DNA from: Acidobacteriota bacterium
Lineage (GTDB): Bacteria > Acidobacteriota > Thermoanaerobaculia > UBA5066
NCBI GenBank assembly: GCA_037443065.1
Contig: JBBIPB010000003.1
Span: 1-48,735, forward strand
Reading direction: 5' to 3'
DNA length: 48,735 bases
The notes under the pieces were generated by a model, which had not been told where the DNA came from, ran no database searches, and worked only from the letters and a program-made list of their open reading frames with translations. Position 1 is the first letter of the stretch, and every line of letters begins with the position of its first letter. Positions 3 through 47,872 of the stretch are shown piece after piece. The position numbers and the translations under genes are program-made.

Positions 3-269
3 ATGATCGTGAATCTGACCGACCTCGACCGGATCCTGAAGGAAGAGGTCGACCGGCCGCTGGACCACCGGCACCTGAACGCGGAGATCCCGGAATTCGC
101 GCGGACGGTTCCCACGGCCGAAAACCTCGCGCGCTGGATCTGGGACCGCGTCGCGGCCCGAATCGTCGCGGAGGGATGGCCCTGCCGCCTCGTCTCCCTG
201 GCGCTCCGCGTGACCCCGACCTTCGCGGTCGAACTCACCGACCCGGAACTCGCGAAGAGCTCCGGCTGA
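3..269 (+). CDS. queD: 6-carboxytetrahydropterin synthase QueD (PTPS family), 5' end outside the window
   Basis: The translation contains the PTPS/QueD-type LDHRHLN motif and the family's C-terminal beta strand. The ORF is open to the window edge. Confidence 0.75.
   Translation: MIVNLTDLDRILKEEVDRPLDHRHLNAEIPEFARTVPTAENLARWIWDRVAARIVAEGWPCRLVSLALRVTPTFAVELTDPELAKSSG
202..232 (+). repeat. Left copy of a 31-bp direct repeat (23 bp perfect: gtgaccccgaccttcgcggtcga) inside the queD 3' end
   Basis: Hand alignment of 202-232 with 833-863 gives 29/31 identical bases. Positions 210-232 and 841-863 are identical. Confidence 0.9.
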
Positions 270-294
270 CGCCGCCGCCGAGACCTCGTAGAAT
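266..294 (+). promoter_or_regulatory. Candidate sigma-70 promoter for the toxin-antitoxin cassette (CTGACG-17 nt-TAGAAT)
   Basis: A -35-like ctgacg lies at 266-271 and a -10-like tagaat at 289-294. A ggag RBS and the antitoxin ATG at 303 follow. Confidence 0.35.
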
Positions 295-302
295 CGGAGC
301 GT

Positions 303-566
303 ATGAGCCGAGCCGCCGCGAAGTCAGATCAGAAAAAGACAGCCGGGACAGGCTCCACCGGGCGCGCCCCGAGCGACCGCGTCGTCGACAGGGACCACCT
401 CGTCCTGCGCCGGGGCGGGAAAGCGGTGGGCGTCGTGATCTCGATGGACGAACTGCGCTACTTCCAGGAGCTGGAGGACCAGCTCGACGTCCGACAGGCC
501 GATACGGCGCTGGCGGACCCCAAGCGCACACCCTACGAGGAAGTGCGCCGCAAGCTCGGCCTGTAG
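303..566 (+). CDS. Type II antitoxin, Phd/YefM-like
   Basis: This 87-aa protein sits directly upstream of a RelE/ParE toxin, and its stop overlaps the toxin start by 1 nt. The core (VVISMDELRYFQELEDQLD) looks like the Phd/YefM family. The family call is by resemblance only. Confidence 0.65.
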   Translation: MSRAAAKSDQKKTAGTGSTGRAPSDRVVDRDHLVLRRGGKAVGVVISMDELRYFQELEDQLDVRQADTALADPKRTPYEEVRRKLGL

Positions 567-832
567 TGGCCTACACCGTCAAGACCACAAACTCGGCCGA
601 CAAGGATCTGGCCGCTCTCCCTCGCGACGTCCTCCTTCGCGTCGACGCGGCCCTCCTCGCCCTCGCCGACGGGCCGCGACCCCACGGAGTCGTCAAGCTC
701 AAGGGGACGAAGGGCGACCGCTGGAGAGTGCGCGTGGGCGACTACCGGGTCCTCTATGCAATCGACGACCGGCGAAAGCTCGTGGAGATCGCCCGCATCC
801 TGCACCGGCGCGAGGCGTACCGCGACCTCTGA
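566..832 (+). CDS. Type II toxin, RelE/ParE family
   Basis: The GTG at 566 is in frame with the C-terminal part of track ORF 176..832. The sequence AYTVKTT..A.KDL..LP....WRVRVGDYRVLYAIDD..K.V.I..I.HRREAY is the classic RelE/ParE signature. Confidence 0.8.
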   Translation: MAYTVKTTNSADKDLAALPRDVLLRVDAALLALADGPRPHGVVKLKGTKGDRWRVRVGDYRVLYAIDDRRKLVEIARILHRREAYRDL

Positions 833-10352: not shown

Positions 10353-11095
10353 AGAACCGCTGGCCATCCACGTTCCTGGGGCTCGCGCTGCTGGCGCTGG
10401 GCGCCGCTTCGTCGGCAGCTGCGCCCGTCGTGCCTCCCGCCCCGAAGGAGTTCGTGACCGATCGTGCCGGCGTCCTGACGCCGGCGACGCGCGCGTCGCT
10501 CGAGAGCCGCCTCCGGGAGTTCGAGGCCTCGACCTCGAACCAGTTCCTCGTTTACATCGACCGGCGGGTTCCCGACGGGACGACGCTCGAGGAGTTCACG
10601 GTGGCGACCGCGCGCGCCTGGCGGGCGGGAGACAAGGCGAGGAACAACGGTCTCGTCCTCTTCGTCTTCCCCGAGTCGCATGCGGCCCGGTTCGAGGTGG
10701 GCTACGGCCTCGAGGGGGCTCTCCCCGACGCTCTCGCCGGGAGGATTCTCCGGGACGAGGCGATCCCACATTTCCGTTCCGGCGACTGGGACGGCGGCGT
10801 CCGGGCCGCGGTCGACGGGGCGATCGCCGCGACGAAAGGGGAATACGTCGGGGCCGGCCGCCACACCTCGGCGCCGCGACAAGGCGGCGGAAACCCCTCC
10901 TTTGTCATCCTTCTCGTCATATTCATCGTCCTCCCGATCGTCTTCGGCGTCCTCCGCGGGGGCGGCGGCGGTCGGGGCCGCTACTGGTACATCGGCGGCG
11001 GCGGCTTCGGGGGCGGGGGTTTTGGCGGCGGCGGCGGCGGCTTTTCCGGAGGGGGAGGCTCGTTCGGCGGCGGCGGCGCGAGCGGGAGCTGGTGA
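10349..11095 (+). CDS. TPM-domain protein (YgcG-like) with a transmembrane helix and a Gly-rich tail. The start is uncertain.
   Basis: The protein has a signal peptide LGLALLALGAASSAAA, a TPM core (VTDRAGVL..., GYGLEG.LPD) and a GGGFGGGG tail. No ATG, GTG or TTG precedes the signal peptide, so CTG at 10349, which overlaps the lemA stop, is proposed. Confidence 0.7.
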   Translation: MKNRWPSTFLGLALLALGAASSAAAPVVPPAPKEFVTDRAGVLTPATRASLESRLREFEASTSNQFLVYIDRRVPDGTTLEEFTVATARAWRAGDKARNNGLVLFVFPESHAARFEVGYGLEGALPDALAGRILRDEAIPHFRSGDWDGGVRAAVDGAIAATKGEYVGAGRHTSAPRQGGGNPSFVILLVIFIVLPIVFGVLRGGGGGRGRYWYIGGGGFGGGGFGGGGGGFSGGGGSFGGGGASGSW

Positions 11096-14053: not shown

Positions 14054-14383
14054 GTGAAGAGAGCGGTGGCGGCGCTCCTCGACAAGAAGGCGGAGAAGCT
14101 CGTCGTCCTCAATCTCGGCTCTCTGACGGCGATGTCGGACTATTTCATCCTTGCCTCGGCCACGAGCGACCGCCAGGCGCAGGCGCTCGCCGACGCCGTC
14201 GAGCAGGCGATGAAGGCGGATGGACGGCGTCCGCTCTCGACGGAGGGATACCAGCGCGCGACCTGGATCCTCCTCGACTACGGTGACGCCGTATTCCACA
14301 TCTTCCACGACGAGGCTCGGCGCTTCTATGGACTCGACCGGCTCTGGGGCGACGCGCCCGACGCCACCGCGCGCTTCAGTTAG
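14054..14383 (+). CDS. rsfS: Ribosome silencing factor RsfS (iojap-like)
   Basis: The sequence LLDKKAEKLVVLNL......DYFILASATSDRQAQALAD.V.....W.LLDYGD.V.HIF....R.FY.L..LW matches the family. The GTG at 14054 was chosen. There is no ATG in frame, and a CTG at 13952 is an alternative. Confidence 0.8.
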   Translation: MKRAVAALLDKKAEKLVVLNLGSLTAMSDYFILASATSDRQAQALADAVEQAMKADGRRPLSTEGYQRATWILLDYGDAVFHIFHDEARRFYGLDRLWGDAPDATARFS

Positions 14384-14387
14384 GGCG

Positions 14388-15338
14388 ATGGCCGGCGCCC
14401 GGCGCCCTCCGTCCCCGACCCCTCTCTTCGCGACCCGTCACCGCGGGCTGAAGCAGCAACTCGCGCGCCTCGAACGAACGCTCGACTCGGCGACGACCGT
14501 GCTGATCCTCGGCGCTCCGGGCACGGGGAAAGACCGGCTGGCCCGGCTCCTTCACGAGCGCTCGCGCCGGCACGCCGAGCCGTTCGTCCGCATCGATCTC
14601 GCGGCGATTCCGGACGACCTGTTCGAGAGCGAGCTCTTCGGTCACGAGCGCGGCGCCTTCACGGGCGCCGTCGCCGCCAAGCCCGGACTCCTCGAGGGGG
14701 CCGGAGAGGGGACGGTTTACCTGGACCGGATCGACGTCCTCTCGCCCCGCGCCCAGGGAAAGCTCCTCCGCGTCCTCGAGGAGCGGCTTTTTCGCCGGGT
14801 CGGGGGGACGCGTCCCCTCACCGTTCGGGCCCGGCTCGTCGCCTCGGCTGCGCCGGACCTTCCACGCCGCGCGCGGACCGGCGAGTTTCGCGAGGACCTC
14901 TTCTACCGGCTCGCCGTCGTGACCGTGCATCTCCCGACGCTCGCCGAGCGCCGCGGCGACCTCGTGGCTGGCGCGCGCGCGGCCGCGCGCGAGGCCGGAG
15001 GGCCCGAGCGGCTCACCCCGTCCGCCGAAGCGATGCTCCGGGAGCGTCCCTGGAGAGGGAACTGGCGCGAGCTCGAGAACGTCGTCCGGCGCGGCGCCAT
15101 CGAGGCGCGGAACGCCGGGGCTCCGGCGCTGGACGTCCACCATCTTCGGACGGTCGGATCGAACGACCCGGAGGCGCTCCTTTCCGAAGCGACACGCTCG
15201 GGCTGGACGCTCCGGCGCCTCACGGACGCCTACGTCGACGTCATTCTCGAGGAGTCGGGCGGGAACGTCTCGGAGGCGGCCCGGCGGCTCGGCATCGCCC
15301 GCAAGACGCTCTACGAGAGGCGCCGCAGGCGGCCATGA
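14388..15338 (+). CDS. Sigma-54-dependent transcriptional activator (EBP) lacking any sensory or receiver domain. Walker B is atypical.
   Basis: The protein has Walker A GAPGTGKD, an intact GAFTGA loop (HERGAFTGA), sensor II WRGNWRELENV and a Fis-type HTH (GGNVSEAARRLGIARKTLYER). Walker B reads VYLDRI (Asp-Arg) where the family has LDE. Only about 40 residues precede Walker A. Confidence 0.8.
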   Translation: MAGARRPPSPTPLFATRHRGLKQQLARLERTLDSATTVLILGAPGTGKDRLARLLHERSRRHAEPFVRIDLAAIPDDLFESELFGHERGAFTGAVAAKPGLLEGAGEGTVYLDRIDVLSPRAQGKLLRVLEERLFRRVGGTRPLTVRARLVASAAPDLPRRARTGEFREDLFYRLAVVTVHLPTLAERRGDLVAGARAAAREAGGPERLTPSAEAMLRERPWRGNWRELENVVRRGAIEARNAGAPALDVHHLRTVGSNDPEALLSEATRSGWTLRRLTDAYVDVILEESGGNVSEAARRLGIARKTLYERRRRRP

Positions 15339-38378: not shown

Positions 38379-39767
38379 TCAGCGGGCGGTCTTCGGTCTG
38401 CCCTCGCGGTCCCGCGCCAGCATGCCGTGGCGCTTGAGCATTTCGTTGAGCGTCGTCGGCTTCAGGTGGAGGAGCTCCGCCGCCTTCTTCTGGACCCCGC
38501 CGGCCCTGTGGAGGGCGGCGGCGAGGAGGGACCGCCGATAGGCCTCCACGGCGTCCTGGAACGAGAGCCCCTCGGGCGGAAGCGCGGCCGGCCGGGGGAC
38601 GGCGTTGCGCACGGCGTCCGGCAGCTCCTCCACGTCGATGACACCGGGCCCGAGGATCAGCGCGCGCTCGAGGACGTTCTCCAGCTCCCGCACGTTTCCC
38701 GGCCAGTCGTAGTCGAGCAGCGCTTTCACGGCCGCCGGTGTAACGGTGGGGACGGGGCGCCCGTTCTCCGATGCGGCGCGCGCCACGAGCGCCTCGACGA
38801 GGAGCGGCACGTCCTCCTTCCGCTCGCGGAGCGGCGGAAGGTGGATCGTGATGACGCAGAGCCGGTAGTAGAGGTCCTCGCGAAAGCGCCCCTCGGCGAC
38901 GAGGCGGGGGAGGTCGGCGTTCGTCGCGGCCACGACCCGGACGTCCGAGCGGATCGGCTCCACGGCACCCACGGGAAGAAACTCGCGCTCCTGGAGGACG
39001 CGCAGGAGCTTCGCCTGGGTCTCGAGCGGAATCGTCCCGATCTCGTCGAAGAAGATCGTCCCGCCGTCGGCGACCTTGAAGAGCCCGCGCTTGTCCGCAA
39101 AGGCACCCGTGAACGAGCCGCGGACGTGCCCGAAGAGGTTGGATTCGAGGAGGTCGGGCGGCAGCGAGCCGGAGTTCACGGTCACGAACGCGCCGGCGGA
39201 GCGCGGCGAAAGGCGGTGGAGGGCCCGCGCCACGAGCTCCTTCCCGGTGCCGCTCTCGCCGACGATCAGGATCGTCGAGCGCGCGTTGGCGGCGTGGCGG
39301 ATCGTGTCGAAGACCTTCGCCATCGGGGCGGAGCGCCCCACGAGATCCCCGAGGCCGCCGCGCGTCCCGTCGAGCCGCGCCTTCAGCTCCCGGTTCTCGG
39401 CGACGAGACGGCGCTTCTCGAGAGCCTGCCGGACGACGTGGACGATCTCGTCGTTCCGGAACGGCTTCGGAAGATAGTGATACGCCCCCTGACGCATGGC
39501 GGAGATGGCGCTCTCGACGGACGAGTAGGCCGTGATGACGACGACGGGAAGCTCGGGCCAGCGCGCCCGGACCTCGGTGAGAACCTCGAGCCCGGGGCGG
39601 TCCGGGAGCATCAGGTCGAGAAGCAGGAGGTCGACGGGCTCGCTCGCGAGCCGCTCGAGGCCTTCGGCCGCGGTTCCGGCCTCAACGGCGGCAAAGCCGG
39701 CCTTTCCGAGGACCGTTCGAAGGACGTCCCGGATGACGGGCTCGTCGTCGAGGATGAGGATCGTCAT
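38379..39767 (-). CDS. Sigma-54-dependent response regulator (NtrC family)
   Basis: The REC domain has [17 protein letters not shown] and LPKP. The AAA+ domain has [14 protein letters not shown], a GSFTGA loop variant and [11 protein letters not shown]-terminal HTH is present. The start is the internal ATG at 39767. Confidence 0.9.
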
Positions 39768-39771
39768 GACG

Positions 39772-42525
39772 TCAGGAGCCGCGCGGCAGGAGGACCGTGA
39801 AGCGTGCGCCGCCACCCGGGCGCGGCGCGGCGTCGAGAGACCCCCCGTGCGCCCGGATGATATCCCGCGCGATCGTCAGCCCCAGCCCGATCCCGCCATC
39901 GGCCGTCTTCGTCGAGAAGAACGGATCGAAGAGACGCTCCCTTCCGGAGGCGGGGAGGCCCGGGCCGTTGTCCTCCACGAGGAACCGGACGAACCGCTCC
40001 TGGGTGTCGAGCGTGAGGGAGACGGCGGCTTTTCTCTCCTCGCCGCGATCCGGGACGGAGCGAGCAGCCTCGGCGGCGTTCTTGAGGAGGTTCACGAGTA
40101 CCTGGAGCAGGGCGTCGGCGTGCCCCGCGACGGCCGGCAGGCCGTCCGGAATCGAGACCGAGAGCGAGACGCCGCGGGTCCCGACCTCCTCCTCGAAGAT
40201 CCGGGCCGCCTCCCGCGCGAGGCCCGGCGGGTCGATCGCGACGCTCTCGCGCGGACGGCCGCGCGCGAGGTCGAGGAGGCTCCCGACGAGTCGCGAGGCC
40301 CGGAACGCCTGCCGCTCGATCTTCTCGAGGAGCGGGCGGCGCGGGTCGTCCGCGGGCGTCTCGTCCAGGAGGACGCGGGCGAAGCCGGTCACTCCGGTGA
40401 GCGGCGTGTTGACCTCGTGGGCGACACCGGCCGAGAGGGAGCCGAGGGCGGCGAGGCGCTCCTGCTCTGCGAGGGCCCGCTCGAGGCGGGCCGTCTCCGT
40501 CGCGTCGTGGAGAACGTAGACGCGGGCGCGTGTCCCGACGCTCATTCCCGGGAAGAGGGAGACCGCCACGTCGAGAACGCGCGTCCCGCCCCCGAGGTCC
40601 GCCTCGAGGCGGCGCGGCGGATCTTCGGCGAGGAGCGCGGCAGGCAGGACCTCGGCGTCCTCCCGTCCGATCAGCTCCGGAGCGGGGCGCCCCGCGAGGA
40701 GCGAGAAGGCGGGGTTCGCGGACGAGAGCCGCCCGGCGTCGTCCGTCGTGACGATCGCCGCGGCGGATCCGGCGACGACGTCCTCGTGAAACTCCTTCAG
40801 AGTCCGGTAGCTCTCGGCCTGGGCGCGGACCTCCTCGTAGAGCCGGGCGTGGTCGAGCGCGAGCGAGGCCGCCGCGAGGGCCGTCTCCAGAAGCTCGAGG
40901 TCCTCATGGGAGAGCGGGACCCGGCCGAGACGGTCACCAAAGGCGAAGAAGGCGAGCAGCCTGCCGGAGGCTGCGAGCGGCGCGACGGTCCGGAAGCCGG
41001 CGGCCCGGAGCCGTGCGATCGATTCCGACCGTCTCTCGTCGAGACGGCGTCTCGAGAGCCTCACCGTCCGGCGTGCTGTGTCTTCCCCAAGCTCGTCGAG
41101 CCGCAGGGCCGGCCCGCCGTCCACGGCTCCGGCGGGAATCCGTCCGTCCCGCGTGACGGGAAGGAGCGCGGCCGGGGCGACGGCCAGTGCCCTCGCGGCG
41201 CGGGAGACGAGCAGCTGTTCGATCTCGGGGGCCGACCGCGGCGCGGCCAGTTCGCGAACGAGAGCGAGGAGCTCCTCGCGTGCGGTCCAGGACTCGCCGT
41301 ACTGGATCCGTGCGAACGCAGCCGAGAGACCCCGCCGAACCGGGACGAAGCTGAGGGCGATGACGAGCCCGGCCGCGGCCTGCAGCGCTCCTCTGGCGTA
41401 CGGAATCGGCGGCACGACGGGGTTCGAGAGAAGGAGCTGCGCCGCCGCGAAGAGCGCGGCCCCCGTCAGACCGGCGCCGACGAGGGCGGCAGTCTCGCGG
41501 CCCAGGACCTCGGCGTCCCAGAGACGAAAGTGCGTGAGTGCGGCGAGGAACGAAAACGGGACGATGGCGATCGGGAGGATCGACATCGAGGAGAGGATCG
41601 GAATCGAGAAGCCGAAGAGGTCCGGGAGGAGGTTGAGGATCACGACCGGCAGGAGACCGATTCCGGTGCCGAGGAGGAGGTAGCGGGCCTGCTTTTCGGC
41701 GAGGAGGTCGCCCGGCCGCCGCCAGAGCCGTTCGAGCCGAAGCAGCGCGATACCCACGGCGGCCGCGATCCAGATCGACTGGAAGCGGTCGAGCGCCTCC
41801 ACGGCCCGAACCGGATCGTGTGCCCCCACGCCTCCGAAGTAGAGGCCGGCGGTCGCCGCCAGGAGCGCGAGCGCCGGGAGAAGGACCGCGAGGCGGAAGC
41901 CCGGAGAAGTCCGGCGGGGGAAGCTGAGAACGAGAACGAGGAGAAGAGCCGGGAAGAGCGCCCGTGCGGCGTCCTCCAGGAGAACCGAGATCCGGAAGAC
42001 GAGGTCGAGCGGCGGGGCCGGCGTGAGCCCGAGGACGAGACCGACGGTGAGTGAGAAGGCCGCGTAGAGCCTCGAAGCCCCGGACTGCGGCGAGCGCGCG
42101 GCCGTCGCGAGGGCTGTCGCCCCGGTCACGAGGAATGCGAGCGCCGTCGCAAAGAGGAAGAAGTACCGGATGTCCCACGGAGCCGGGACGGGCCGCGTCC
42201 GGAAAGTCCTGACTTCACCCGACCTGAGGACCGAAACCTCCGCCCCGTTTCGGGCGAGCCAGAGCGAGGGATCGCCGGCCGCCGTCGCTTCGGCCCCGTC
42301 TACGAGAAGCAGAAGATCCCCTCGCCGGAGCCCAGAGGCCTCGGCACTCCGGCCGATCCGGAGGATTCGAAGCCCTTCGGCTTCCGCCTGAACGAGGACG
42401 TCCGCCCGGCCCGCGAGAGCGATCTTCCGCGAAACGATCAGGGTGAGCGGAAACAGACTCGCGACGAAAGAGAGCGCGAGAAAGCCGGTCAGGAAGCGGT
42501 CGGCCCTCTTGAAGCGAAGTGACAC
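39772..42525 (-). CDS. Polytopic sensor histidine kinase with an N-terminal PDZ-like domain, GAF/PAS region, HisKA and HATPase_c
   Basis: A transmembrane helix is followed by a PDZ-like segment (GLRILRIGRSAEASGLRRGDLLLLVDG) and about eight further hydrophobic helices. The H box is AGVAHEVNTPL, and the N and G boxes are LVNLLKNA and DNGPGL...GGIGLGL. The start is GTG at 42525. Confidence 0.85.
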   Translation of the reverse strand: MSLRFKRADRFLTGFLALSFVASLFPLTLIVSRKIALAGRADVLVQAEAEGLRILRIGRSAEASGLRRGDLLLLVDGAEATAAGDPSLWLARNGAEVSVLRSGEVRTFRTRPVPAPWDIRYFFLFATALAFLVTGATALATAARSPQSGASRLYAAFSLTVGLVLGLTPAPPLDLVFRISVLLEDAARALFPALLLVLVLSFPRRTSPGFRLAVLLPALALLAATAGLYFGGVGAHDPVRAVEALDRFQSIWIAAAVGIALLRLERLWRRPGDLLAEKQARYLLLGTGIGLLPVVILNLLPDLFGFSIPILSSMSILPIAIVPFSFLAALTHFRLWDAEVLGRETAALVGAGLTGAALFAAAQLLLSNPVVPPIPYARGALQAAAGLVIALSFVPVRRGLSAAFARIQYGESWTAREELLALVRELAAPRSAPEIEQLLVSRAARALAVAPAALLPVTRDGRIPAGAVDGGPALRLDELGEDTARRTVRLSRRRLDERRSESIARLRAAGFRTVAPLAASGRLLAFFAFGDRLGRVPLSHEDLELLETALAAASLALDHARLYEEVRAQAESYRTLKEFHEDVVAGSAAAIVTTDDAGRLSSANPAFSLLAGRPAPELIGREDAEVLPAALLAEDPPRRLEADLGGGTRVLDVAVSLFPGMSVGTRARVYVLHDATETARLERALAEQERLAALGSLSAGVAHEVNTPLTGVTGFARVLLDETPADDPRRPLLEKIERQAFRASRLVGSLLDLARGRPRESVAIDPPGLAREAARIFEEEVGTRGVSLSVSIPDGLPAVAGHADALLQVLVNLLKNAAEAARSVPDRGEERKAAVSLTLDTQERFVRFLVEDNGPGLPASGRERLFDPFFSTKTADGGIGLGLTIARDIIRAHGGSLDAAPRPGGGARFTVLLPRGS

Positions 42526-42539
42526 CTATAAGGCGGCAC

Positions 42540-42554
42540 GCAATGGAGGTGCCA
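42540..42554 (-). promoter_or_regulatory. Sigma-54 (-24/-12) promoter, perfect TGGCAC-N5-TTGC
   Basis: The minus strand reads aagcgaTGGCACctccaTTGCgtgccgccttatagGTG. The -12 GC lies 14 nt before the kinase GTG. Confidence 0.6.
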
Positions 42555-46357: not shown

Positions 46358-46942
46358 ATGATGAGCCTGCCGGAGCCGGCCGCCCTGTTCCGTCCTGTCC
46401 GCACCGCCGCGCTCGCACTTCTCCTTCTCGCGGCCTTGCCCGCCGCGGCGCAGAGCTTCGCCGCCGGAGCGGGCGGCGGCGCCGTCGCCGATCTCGGTGC
46501 GAGCGCCGCCCGGAGCGGCTTTCACAACTTCGGCGGGTACGGATTCTTCGAAGTCTCGATCGAGAGCTATGGAGCGCGCAACGAGGTCCTCCTCCAGGCC
46601 CGAGGAGAGTTCCTCACGCTCCCGGGGGGCGCCGCGGGCGCGCCGGACGTGAACGTCAGCTCCGGCCTCGGGATCGTCACATACCGCTTTCGCGAAGACT
46701 GGTGGGACGCGGGGCTCCTGGCCGGGGTCGGCGTCTTCGGCATCTCCCCGAAGTCTCCCTCGGCGAGTCAGGCCGCCGCCGACCCGTCCGAGACCGTCTT
46801 CGGATGGTGTGCCGGGGCGCAGACCGTCTTCCGGATCTCCCGCCGGGTCGATTTCCGTCTCGAAGCCTCCTGGCAGGTTCCCAGCACCCGGCTCCAACAC
46901 AAGTTCTTCTTCGTGACGGGTGGGTTCGGGTACCGGTTCTAG
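46358..46942 (+). CDS. Small outer-membrane beta-barrel protein (porin-family-like)
   Basis: The signal peptide is ALALLLLAALPAAAQS. The protein has alternating aromatic and hydrophobic strands and a C-terminal GGFGYRF with terminal Phe. Confidence 0.6.
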   Translation: MMSLPEPAALFRPVRTAALALLLLAALPAAAQSFAAGAGGGAVADLGASAARSGFHNFGGYGFFEVSIESYGARNEVLLQARGEFLTLPGGAAGAPDVNVSSGLGIVTYRFREDWWDAGLLAGVGVFGISPKSPSASQAAADPSETVFGWCAGAQTVFRISRRVDFRLEASWQVPSTRLQHKFFFVTGGFGYRF

Positions 46943-47008
46943 AGACCGCGTCTCAGGCCAGAGCGCGTAAGGCGGGCTCCGGACGCCCTCCGAACGCGGC
47001 GGGACCCA

Positions 47009-47027
47009 CCCGATCTTTCGGATCGGG
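47009..47027. terminator. Short hairpin cccgatc-tttcg-gatcggg in the convergent intergenic region
   Basis: The 7-bp stem is perfect, and no U tract follows on either strand. It could end the barrel-gene transcript (plus strand) or the candidate small transcript (minus strand). Confidence 0.25.
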
Positions 47028-47066
47028 CGGGGTTGCGGCGGCGGGATGTTCAGATGTGAGGAAGAA

Positions 47067-47147
47067 TCAGGAAGGATGGTAGAGGTGGGGCCGCTGGCTG
47101 GGAAGCCTGCGGGTACTGGGGAGGGTGTTTTTGAAGATCACGTGCAT
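47067..47147 (-). CDS. Candidate 26-codon small ORF (MHVIFKNTLPSTRRLPSQRPHLYHPS), speculative
   Basis: The ATG is preceded by aggga 7 nt upstream and lies about 30 nt downstream of the predicted sigma-54 start site. A hand count gives G/C at 14/26 first, 12/26 second and 21/26 third codon positions, which is coding-like for this genome. The ORF is too short to appear in the supplied track. Confidence 0.2.
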   Translation of the reverse strand: MHVIFKNTLPSTRRLPSQRPHLYHPS

Positions 47148-47190
47148 TTTGGTTTCCCTGATGTCGTTTCGATCTCCTGTCTTCTTTTAC

Positions 47191-47205
47191 GCAAACCAAG
47201 TGCCT
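47191..47205 (-). promoter_or_regulatory. Candidate sigma-54 promoter, AGGCAC-N5-TTGC
   Basis: The minus strand reads gAGGCACttggtTTGCg. GGCAC and TTGC have exactly the consensus spacing, with one mismatch to TGGCAC. It lies in a non-coding, AT-richer gap between convergent genes. Confidence 0.45.
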
Positions 47206-47269
47206 CTGGTTTTGCCACGGGGGCCCGACATCGTCTTCTTCAATGTTTGCAGTAACTTGGACCTGATTC

Positions 47270-47293
47270 TCGACCGAACGGCCGTTCGGTCGA
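47270..47293. promoter_or_regulatory. Perfect 24-bp palindrome TCGACCGAACGG/CCGTTCGGTCGA
   Basis: All 12 bp of each arm are complementary, verified by hand. Its centre lies about 100 bp upstream of the predicted start of the 47191-47205 promoter and 60 nt after the lrp stop. Confidence 0.55.
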
Positions 47294-47352
47294 TCATCCC
47301 ATTTGGGGGTCAGCCACGGACGAAATGACGCCCGGGGATGGCAGCCGGGGCC

Positions 47353-47811
47353 TCAGGCGCCTTCGCTCACGGAGAGGAGCGTCGAGTCCTTCTTGACCGA
47401 GAGCGAGAGTTCCACGCGCGTCCGGGCGACGCCGCGGAGCGTCTGAATCCTCTCGCGCAGGATCCGCTCGAGGTGATCGACGTCACGGGCACGAACTTTC
47501 AGCCGGTAGCCGAACTCCCCGGAGATCGCGCAACATTCCTGGACGTCGAGAAGAGTCTCGATCTCCTCGAGGAACGGGCGCTCGAAGCGTGGATGCTCGA
47601 GACCGACGTCCACGTAAGCGACCAGAGGCATGCCGATCAGGCGCGGATCGAGCAGGGCCGTGAAGCGGCGGATGAAGCCCCGGGTCTCGAGCTTCTTGAT
47701 TCGCTCGTTGACGGACGGCGTCGTCAGGCCGACGGCCTCCGCTATCCGGGCCTGGGAGAGCTTCCCGTCGCGCTGAAGGAGGTCCAGGATCTGACGATCG
47801 ATCTCGTCCAT
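47353..47811 (-). CDS. lrp: Lrp/AsnC-family transcriptional regulator
   Basis: The HTH region is MDEIDRQILDLLQRDGKLSQARIAEAVGLTTPSVNERIKKLE..G.I and is followed by a RAM/ACT-like C-terminal domain. Confidence 0.9.
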   Translation of the reverse strand: MDEIDRQILDLLQRDGKLSQARIAEAVGLTTPSVNERIKKLETRGFIRRFTALLDPRLIGMPLVAYVDVGLEHPRFERPFLEEIETLLDVQECCAISGEFGYRLKVRARDVDHLERILRERIQTLRGVARTRVELSLSVKKDSTLLSVSEGA

Positions 47812-47813
47812 AA

Positions 47814-47848
47814 AAAATTCGGGCGTTTTGCCTCGTAGCCCGAATTTT
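47814..47848 (-). terminator. Inverted repeat AAAATTCGGGC-N13-GCCCGAATTTT: glgC terminator and/or lrp operator or 5'-UTR hairpin
   Basis: The arms are a perfect 11 bp. On the minus strand the hairpin is followed by a T run (gaatttttt) that abuts the lrp ATG. Confidence 0.45.
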
Positions 47849-47872
47849 ATTTGGAGCGGGAGGGAGAATCAA
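47844..47872 (-). promoter_or_regulatory. Candidate sigma-70 promoter of lrp (TTGATT-17 nt-TAAAAT on the minus strand)
   Basis: The hexamers were read by hand. The -35 overlaps the glgC stop codon and the -10 overlaps one arm of the inverted repeat. Confidence 0.4.

Follow-up and report, generated by a model that had tools for sequence, protein, structure and literature searches.

Why are two convergent genes of an uncultured Acidobacteriota bacterium separated by 410 bp of DNA, and what does the DNA between them encode? We examined this locus in a 48,735-nt stretch of contig JBBIPB010000003.1 (Acidobacteriota bacterium, GCA_037443065.1), hereafter the window, to which all coordinates refer. 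The gap is bounded by lrp, a minus-strand regulatory gene terminating at 47353, and by a plus-strand beta-barrel gene terminating at 46942. Its G+C content is 60.5%, compared with 70.3% for the whole window, and drops to 52–56% in individual 200-nt stretches. A sequence-only reading of the window had already pointed to the low G+C content of this gap and had described a palindrome, a sigma-54-type promoter sequence, a coding-like open reading frame (ORF) and a hairpin within it, all of which are indeed found at the coordinates given. It had joined them into an unannotated, sigma-54-dependent minus-strand transcription unit of roughly 170 nt, starting near 47179, that would specify either a small RNA (sRNA) or a small protein. 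Such a unit, about 170–190 nt long and extending beyond the hairpin at 47027–47009, is strongly supported by the comparative evidence presented below. We predict that the gap contains an independent gene whose product is a structured non-coding RNA, running on the minus strand from approximately 47179 to approximately 46990–47004. Coordinates of the features discussed are collected in Table 1.

Relatives of the locus were identified by scanning the Lrp protein against one genome per GTDB species. The scan returned 59 loci (L001–L059) with Lrp identities of 79–96%, all from metagenome-assembled genomes (MAGs) labelled Acidobacteriota, Thermoanaerobaculia or Holophagales, together with 21 distant Lrp paralogues (L060–L080). 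In the 59 loci, the DNA immediately past lrp aligns with the minus strand of the window between about 47212 and 47005. A profile built on the element detects exactly one copy in each of these loci and in the window, always on the lrp strand, and no copy in the 21 distant paralogue loci. We also scanned in the reverse direction, searching metagenome contigs for GGCAY-N5-TTGCGTA-N8-CAGGAGATC, a pattern that combines the promoter with the first nine transcribed bases. This search recovered 57 loci, 55 of which contain the whole element. An Lrp orthologue ends 142–287 nt upstream on the same strand in all 49 metagenome copies that have at least 300 nt of upstream sequence, and lrp is likewise the upstream neighbour in all 59 genome loci. 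The convergent barrel gene is found downstream in 47 of the 48 metagenome loci with at least 600 nt of downstream sequence. Together these copies delineate what we predict to be an RNA family conserved in more than 100 related uncultured Acidobacteriota sequences.

The predicted promoter is defined by an alignment of the window with its 59 relatives (A1). The GGCA and TTGC blocks are invariant throughout this alignment, and the five-nucleotide spacer between them varies freely at every position without a single indel. The -24 GG (47204–47203) and the -12 GC (47192–47191) of the window have the GG-N10-GC spacing of the sigma-54 consensus, as the sequence-only reading had claimed. The base following GGCA is T or C in 59 sequences, and TTGC is followed directly by GTA in 57–59 sequences, giving a conserved GTA(T)A beyond the -12 element. 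Seven variable positions then lead to the conserved CAGGAGAUCG, and the distance from the promoter to CAGGAG is constant. The start predicted from this geometry, 12 nt past the GC, falls at 47179/47178 on the minus strand. Conservation of the RNA begins at this point, whereas the 40–60 nt upstream of the promoter are variable. Compared with the canonical sigma-54 promoter (TGGCAC-N5-TTGCW), the element has the exact spacing of the -24 GG and -12 GC, and differs in the unusual conservation of GTATA past -12 and in the base at -26, where the consensus T is replaced by A in the window and 36/60 relatives. The window sequence is thus AGGCAC-N5-TTGCG, and that of the Holophagales-labelled clade TGGCAT-N5-TTGCG. 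The pattern GGCAC-N5-TTGC is rare, occurring twice in the 48.7-kb window versus 0.08 times expected from shuffles, and both copies are intergenic and point toward conserved downstream units. A consensus scan of 46700–47600 reported no sigma-70 promoter. Fixed spacing, invariant bipartite blocks and a variable spacer lead us to predict a sigma-54 -24/-12 element rather than an RNA hairpin. A plus-strand hairpin over the promoter had been raised as a caveat by the sequence-only reading, and the underlying inverted repeat (AAACCA...TGGTTT) is real within the window's own subclade. Elsewhere the repeat is lost and GGCA and TTGC are unchanged.

The two metagenome matches that fall outside the family (L119 and L129) come from an unrelated low-GC organism and carry TGGCAC-N5-TTGC ahead of a small ORF that has an ordinary ribosome-binding site. 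At L119 2563–2900 and L129 11551–11779, TGGCAC-TCGAT-TTGCG is followed by AGGAGATC and by a small acidic ORF (MNSEKSTESEEILEYRF...). They are chance matches to the search pattern, and look like a genuine sigma-54-dependent small-protein gene. Since both are themselves sigma-54-type promoters, we count them toward the promoter assignment.

The transcript itself was analysed using an alignment of the transcribed region from 60 sequences (A2), with the structure predicted by RNAalifold. The model contains three helices, P1, P2 and P3, separated by unpaired stretches, the longest of which lies between P2 and P3 and is C-rich. The 5' end, at the C/A of CAGGAGAUCG, is predicted from promoter geometry, and the 3' end is uncertain within 47004–46990. 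P1 encloses a clade-variable insert that includes the ATG of the ORF described by the sequence-only reading. P3 corresponds to the hairpin of that reading, extended to 11 pairs. Across the model 95.5% of alignment cells are paired, compared with 32–53% when the partners are slid by 1–3 columns. Ten pairs have changed on both sides, versus 3.0 ± 1.2 in shuffled alignments, and none of 500 shuffles reaches 10; the covariation score is 0.127, compared with 0.02–0.03 for controls. Compensatory double changes are present in six of the eight pairs of P2. One P1 position is G-U in 58/59 sequences, and a P3 pair alternates between G-U (36 sequences) and G-C (21), which is possible on the minus strand only. 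The P3 cap is GAAA, GCAA or similar, and is a GNRA-type loop on the minus strand only. We assign the RNA to the minus strand of the window because several of its G-U pairs would be A-C on the other strand, and because of these GNRA loops. Folding energies point the same way, with a z-score of -2.46 on the minus strand as opposed to +0.15 on the plus strand. De novo folding by RNAalifold of an independent set, comprising 42 distinct metagenome sequences and the window (A3), returns the same three helices with compensatory changes in eight pairs. A covariance model built from A2 (R1) finds a single copy in the window. P3 is a strong G+C-rich hairpin and is followed in most relatives by A(G)CCCRCC and then a U run of 2–7, with 8–9 nt between P3 and the U run. 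The window has only UU at this position.

Does the RNA encode a protein? The sequence-only reading had described a 26-codon ORF as coding-like, and its coordinates and its G/C counts at codon positions 1, 2 and 3 (14, 12 and 21 of 26) are exact. The region could accordingly be a small-protein gene (26 aa in the window, 23–32 aa in relatives) or a translated dual-function RNA, for which the high G+C content at third positions may be cited together with an ATG or GTG ORF that is open at the same column in 42/60 sequences and several indels near the start that are multiples of three. Closer comparison argues otherwise. The start column contains ATG in 40/60 sequences; the other 20 comprise two with GTG (L058 and L059) and 18 with TGG, AGG or ACG (the Holophagales-labelled clade and L041). 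Among the 40 ATG-bearing sequences 13 shift frame within the ORF via 1-nt indels, and the P2 hairpin is retained. Column entropies by codon position (0.75/0.65/0.69) show no excess of third-position substitutions, and in the tightest 17-sequence subclade (0.38/0.31/0.22) the third position is the least variable. Stop codons are sparse in every frame, at less than one per 130 nt, as a consequence of the C-richness of the RNA (40% C). The AGGAGA at 47178–47173 (minus strand) lies at the predicted transcript start, and there is no Shine-Dalgarno sequence at a usable distance from the ORF start. The apparent conservation of an N-terminal M-x-T-I/V-F coincides with the 3' arm of P1. We consider that the ORF is very probably not a real protein gene and that translation as the function of this locus is highly improbable. 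Of the two products originally proposed, the covarying helices favour the sRNA, and the small protein is disfavoured by its unconserved start and frame.

Outgroup loci, in which Lrp is about 61–64% identical, keep the gene order DnaJ–lrp–barrel–comF–Pro_dh–kinase–activator and show the junction with and without the element. One of them (L144) ends too soon past lrp for the junction to be judged. In three of the four that can be judged, lrp and the barrel gene are only 12–67 nt apart and no sRNA is present (L083, 10486–10500; L142, 3486–3499; L143, 3486–3554). The gap of about 370–410 bp in the window's clade appears to be essentially an inserted sRNA cassette with its upstream boxes. The fourth junction locus, L141, has a 350-nt gap in which an element at 10545–10835 occupies the opposite strand between lrp and the barrel gene. 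On this strand TGGCAC-CTCGC-TTGCA is followed by a C-rich RNA of about 170–190 nt, in which a P2-like hairpin and a P3 capped by GAAA precede AGGCCCACC and UUUUU. R1 matches this element over its whole length with 23.1 bits (E about 2e-4, a rough value), and the match begins 3 nt from the start predicted by the L141 promoter. The covariance model was needed for detection; nhmmer on the outgroup loci gave only a marginal match, in L141, with E = 1.6. The region upstream of the L141 promoter contains tandem GGTGGTA(G) heptamer repeats with inverted copies, unlike the boxes of the window's clade.

The inverted homologue bears directly on whether the conserved block is instead the 3' untranslated region (UTR) of lrp, generated by read-through or processing, with GGCA...TTGC serving as a protein-binding or RNA element unrelated to sigma-54. 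In the window's clade the element always lies 142–287 nt past lrp on the same strand, no clear lrp terminator intervenes, and 3'-UTR-derived sRNAs such as GlnZ are known (PMC9731577). An invariant bipartite pattern with a variable spacer of fixed length is exactly the sigma-54 consensus, however, and RNA conservation sets in 12 nt past it, after the variable upstream stretch. The L141 unit is inverted relative to lrp and keeps its own TGGCAC-N5-TTGCA, which argues strongly for an independent cassette of promoter and RNA, and a 3'-UTR origin is very improbable. The downstream neighbour is convergent and the element is therefore not a leader. An ORF at "+66..584" downstream of the element in Holophagales-labelled loci was considered as a led gene and rejected, being an antisense frame of the barrel gene.

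Upstream of the promoter, the sequence-only reading had proposed the perfect 24-bp palindrome as the enhancer. The palindrome is present as described and occurs once in the window, so it is not a member of a repeat family there. It is recognizable only in L001 (GACCGAcCGGCTGaTCGGTC) and L005, imperfectly, with unrelated sequence in other relatives, and appears to be a young, lineage-specific feature, so that the enhancer proposal is not supported. It is no better explained as the lrp terminator, an alternative that the same reading had allowed, as it has no U-tract, receives no terminator call and is poorly conserved. The conserved boxes lie elsewhere, at about -167 to -115. A regular-expression scan places a box of the GYGYC(R)WTTYYG type at a fixed -148 to -167 in about 36/60 sequences, and related boxes can be seen by eye in most other sequences of the alignment. 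One or two more boxes follow at steps of roughly 20 nt downstream of the first, and several are imperfect dyads of 15–17 bp, such as GGTGC-N6-GCACC in L043. In the window the boxes lie between about -152 and -115 relative to the predicted start. Several activator sites are similarly arrayed upstream of glmY and glmZ (PMC3045617). The boxes and the conserved region upstream of lrp have TTTCG/CGAAA-type cores in common, a resemblance that makes Lrp an alternative candidate for binding them.

A further repeat is confined to one subclade of 17 sequences (L037, L008, L021 and 14 other loci). Here the second box, GTGTCCGTTTTCGATCTC at about -145 to -124, is almost perfectly reverse-complementary over 18 nt to the 5' end of the sRNA, GAGATCGAAACGGACA. 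The repeat could reflect pairing of lrp read-through RNA with the sRNA, or one protein acting at both sites. We rejected the idea that the boxes are in general reverse complements of the sRNA 5' end, since outside this subclade the scores equal those of controls (about 12).

What the RNA might do is suggested by its unpaired C-rich sequence. The linker between P2 and P3 includes a near-invariant AUCCCRCCGCCGCA block with its core at 47049–47035. The hexamer CC[CU]NCC (CCYNCC) occurs 7.0 times per molecule, compared with 2.5 in shuffles. Conserved unpaired copies, at A2 columns 122, 139, 172 and 219, are found after P2, in the middle of the linker, in the AUCCCRCCGCCGCA block and in the 3' tail, giving four or five motifs per RNA. 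By sequence these motifs resemble anti-Shine-Dalgarno elements. A duplex prediction between the sRNA and the start of the barrel gene produced only a meaningless long-loop duplex.

We favour, with a probability of roughly 0.72, a stand-alone sigma-54-dependent sRNA gene that is switched by an activator and acts in trans through its C-rich motifs. Sigma-54 RNA polymerase would be held at the promoter in a closed complex until an AAA+ enhancer-binding protein, bound to the conserved boxes about 115–167 bp upstream, remodels the complex and the promoter fires. As firing would occur only upon remodelling, the RNA would be made only in response to the activator's signal. Once released, it would act in trans, with its exposed CCYNCC and CCCRCCGCCGCA motifs pairing with G-rich ribosome-binding regions of target mRNAs and lowering their translation, as for other C-rich sRNAs. 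Its unvarying position beside lrp points to a possible connection with the Lrp regulon (amino-acid/nitrogen status).

The main mechanistic rival accepts a real, sigma-54-driven RNA that acts without mRNA pairing, as a protein sponge or decoy whose four or five C-rich motifs would titrate an RNA-binding protein, or as a mimic of another RNA in the manner of GlmY and GlmZ. Repeated, regularly spaced, unpaired CCYNCC motifs are a typical layout for sponge RNAs, and no mRNA target was found within the window. We know of no bacterial protein that binds CCYNCC motifs, which speaks against a sponge. So does their complementarity to the Shine-Dalgarno core, which favours RNA pairing and has a precedent in RsaE/RoxS. 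The element is present in one copy per locus, and no homologous partner sRNA was seen that it might mimic. GlmY, the best-studied sigma-54-dependent sRNA of similar size, is reported to act as a decoy (PMC4152352, PMC7073468). Overall we judge a sponge or decoy unlikely, though it deserves to be taken seriously.

A role in cis would require neither target nor partner elsewhere. Transcription past a weak terminator could silence the convergent barrel gene, which encodes an outer-membrane protein, by antisense RNA or by polymerase collision, and both the near-universal convergence of that gene (47/48 loci) and the position of its stop codon (46942), about 50 nt from the sRNA end, fit such a role. 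So does the terminator scan of 46700–47600, in which no canonical intrinsic terminator was reported. Such silencing, however, would not call for three covarying helices and invariant unpaired motifs in an RNA of 190 nt, the inverted L141 unit points at lrp and away from the barrel gene, and a U run follows P3 in most relatives. We regard a cis role as improbable.

Several observations weigh against an activator-switched, trans-acting sRNA, the first being that same lack of a canonical terminator. A search of the 48.7-kb window for the complement of the invariant C-rich block matched the sRNA locus alone and revealed no target. From clade to clade the boxes are not the same, and they may instead be sites for Lrp or act at the RNA level as elements of the lrp 3' end. 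Within the conserved TTGCGTATA there is a -10-like TATA, and sigma-70 may contribute to transcription. The ATG is conserved in the non-Holophagales clades in a way that structure does not explain, and we therefore keep a small probability for a dual function. Finally, the case is built entirely on comparative sequence from uncultured organisms.

Table 1. Positions of lrp and of the predicted sRNA gene with its component features in the window.
Feature	Position	Strand	Basis or detail
lrp (AsnC/Lrp regulator)	47353..47811	-	Pfam HTH_AsnC-type and AsnC_trans_reg matches
Upstream boxes, candidate activator sites	47294..47331	-	Box 1 GCGTCATTTCG 47331-47321; box 2 ACCCCCAAATGGGATGA 47310-47294
Perfect 24-bp palindrome TCGACCGAACGGCCGTTCGGTCGA	47270..47293		Centred at about -102
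Predicted sigma-54-type promoter gAGGCAC-TTGGT-TTGCg	47190..47206	-	Invariant GGCA and TTGC, 60/60
Predicted sRNA, about 175-190 nt	46990..47179	-	Profile copies in 59/59 Lrp loci; whole element in 55 metagenome loci; covariance model 139 bits in the window
Helix P1, GGAGAUCG (47177-47170) / UGAUCUUC (47140-47133)	47133..47177	-	RNAalifold, 94.5% of cells paired
26-codon ORF MHVIFKNTLPSTRRLPSQRPHLYHPS	47067..47147	-	Inside sRNA, not conserved as coding
Helix P2 hairpin, CCCGCAGGC (47113-47105) / GCCAGCGGC (47098-47090)	47090..47113	-	RNAalifold
Unpaired C-rich linker with CCYNCC motifs	47032..47089	-	Conserved columns of A2
Helix P3, CCCGCCCGAUCC (47031-47020)-GAAA-GAUCGGGUGGG (47015-47005)	47005..47031	-	98.3% of cells paired

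Two sigma-54 activators are encoded in the window, as the sequence-only reading had noted, and both are identified by Pfam. The genome thus has a sigma-54 system, and we count these activators, with the second promoter described below, in favour of the promoter assignment. The first (14220–15338, plus strand) has AAA+ and HTH_8 domains, and Pfam shows no receiver or other recognizable N-terminal sensor domain. The second (38379–39815, minus strand) is an NtrC-type response regulator downstream of a 917-aa histidine kinase (39772–42525, minus strand). The other sigma-54-type promoter of the window, TGGCAC-CTCCA-TTGCG at 42554–42539 on the minus strand, is intergenic and precedes this kinase/activator operon (38379–42525), for which autoregulation is likely. 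In both L081 and L083 the orthologous kinase likewise has a TGGCA(C/T)-N5-TTG(C/A) site upstream. The operon lies 5–9 kb from the sRNA and is syntenic both in a relative with the sRNA (L081) and in one without it (L083). A comparison of the promoter regions of the operon and of the sRNA showed no common motif, and together these observations give no evidence either way on the cognate regulator.

Of the genes flanking the gap, the beta-barrel gene has its likely start at 46358. The region upstream of lrp (47812–47872, minus strand) contains a sigma-70-like TTGATT-N17-TAAAAT that shares bases with the stop codon of glgC. Beyond it come a hairpin, TTCGGGC (47844–47838) / GCCCGAA (47824–47818), and a run of six U directly adjoining the ATG of lrp. 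The region lacks a Shine-Dalgarno sequence. The arms of the hairpin covary across about 37 relatives, and the arrangement may serve as an operator of lrp, as a leader attenuator or as the terminator of glgC.

How does the predicted RNA relate to known systems? GlmY and GlmZ are of similar size (about 150–210 nt) and have three stem-loops. In Enterobacteriaceae their genes depend on sigma-54 and GlrR/QseF, with three upstream activator sites (PMC3045617). The likeness to the element extends from the sigma-54-type promoter to the several boxes upstream, which in the element are candidate activator sites, the A/T-richer stretch between boxes and promoter, a conserved regulatory neighbourhood and a -10-like TATA overlapping -12, as at E. 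coli glmY (PMC3045617). Unlike GlmY and GlmZ, the element is C-rich with anti-Shine-Dalgarno-like motifs, its boxes are not TGTC-N10-GACA, and its neighbour is lrp rather than a cognate two-component system, with nothing to link the kinase/activator operon to the sRNA. The Qrr RNAs of Vibrio are about 100 nt long, Hfq-dependent and present in multiple copies. They are trans-acting and depend on sigma-54 and an activator, LuxO (PMC4878744, PMC11407668), as we predict for the element with an activator of its own. The element differs from Qrr in its length of about 190 nt, its single copy per locus and its sequence. In the RsaE/RoxS RNAs and other C-rich-motif sRNAs of Firmicutes, C-rich motifs pair with Shine-Dalgarno regions of mRNAs (PMC6158497). 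What they have in common with the element is repeated, unpaired C-rich motifs, with several mRNAs as proposed partners through their G-rich or Shine-Dalgarno regions. They belong to another phylum and are unlike the element in promoter type, length and fold, and for the element pairing is a prediction.

An Rfam scan, one of the checks proposed by the sequence-only reading, produced no relevant match. Rfam 15 gave none at the gathering threshold anywhere in the window. At E <= 10 in 46800–47500 it gave only two spurious matches to eukaryotic long non-coding RNAs, and none to GlmY/GlmZ, Qrr, RsaE, 6S or Acido-type motifs. A search of full-text literature found no description of such an RNA or of an Acidobacteria sRNA linked to sigma-54/RpoN. 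We propose that the element represents a new family of sigma-54-dependent sRNAs, outside the GlmY/GlmZ and Qrr families.

A broader extrapolation, which we hold to be distinctly doubtful, is that the RNA is a class-wide, multi-site mimic of the anti-Shine-Dalgarno sequence, switched by a sigma-54 activator, coupled to Lrp and carried on a movable cassette, that brakes translation initiation broadly under a nutrient signal. If so, a single molecule could occupy several ribosome-binding sites, or several mRNAs, simultaneously through its four or five exposed CCYNCC motifs, in contrast to an sRNA with a handful of targets, and promoter and RNA would form a mobile unit that can turn around at its site, as in L141. 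It would also be the first characterized riboregulator in Acidobacteriota.

The locus carries a caution for annotation, in that a structured RNA rich in C and poor in stops is enough to produce a "coding-like" ORF, complete with conserved ATG and indels of 3 nt. Riboregulation is almost unexplored in Acidobacteriota, a major and mostly uncultured phylum of soil and sediment, and the element would add a phylogenetically distant case to the small set of sigma-54-dependent sRNAs. As a predicted RNA family it comprises more than 100 sequences and comes with a covariance model, a recognizable and presumably regulated promoter, and a fixed address between lrp and a beta-barrel gene. These properties make it annotatable in MAGs, traceable in metatranscriptomes and testable in heterologous hosts.

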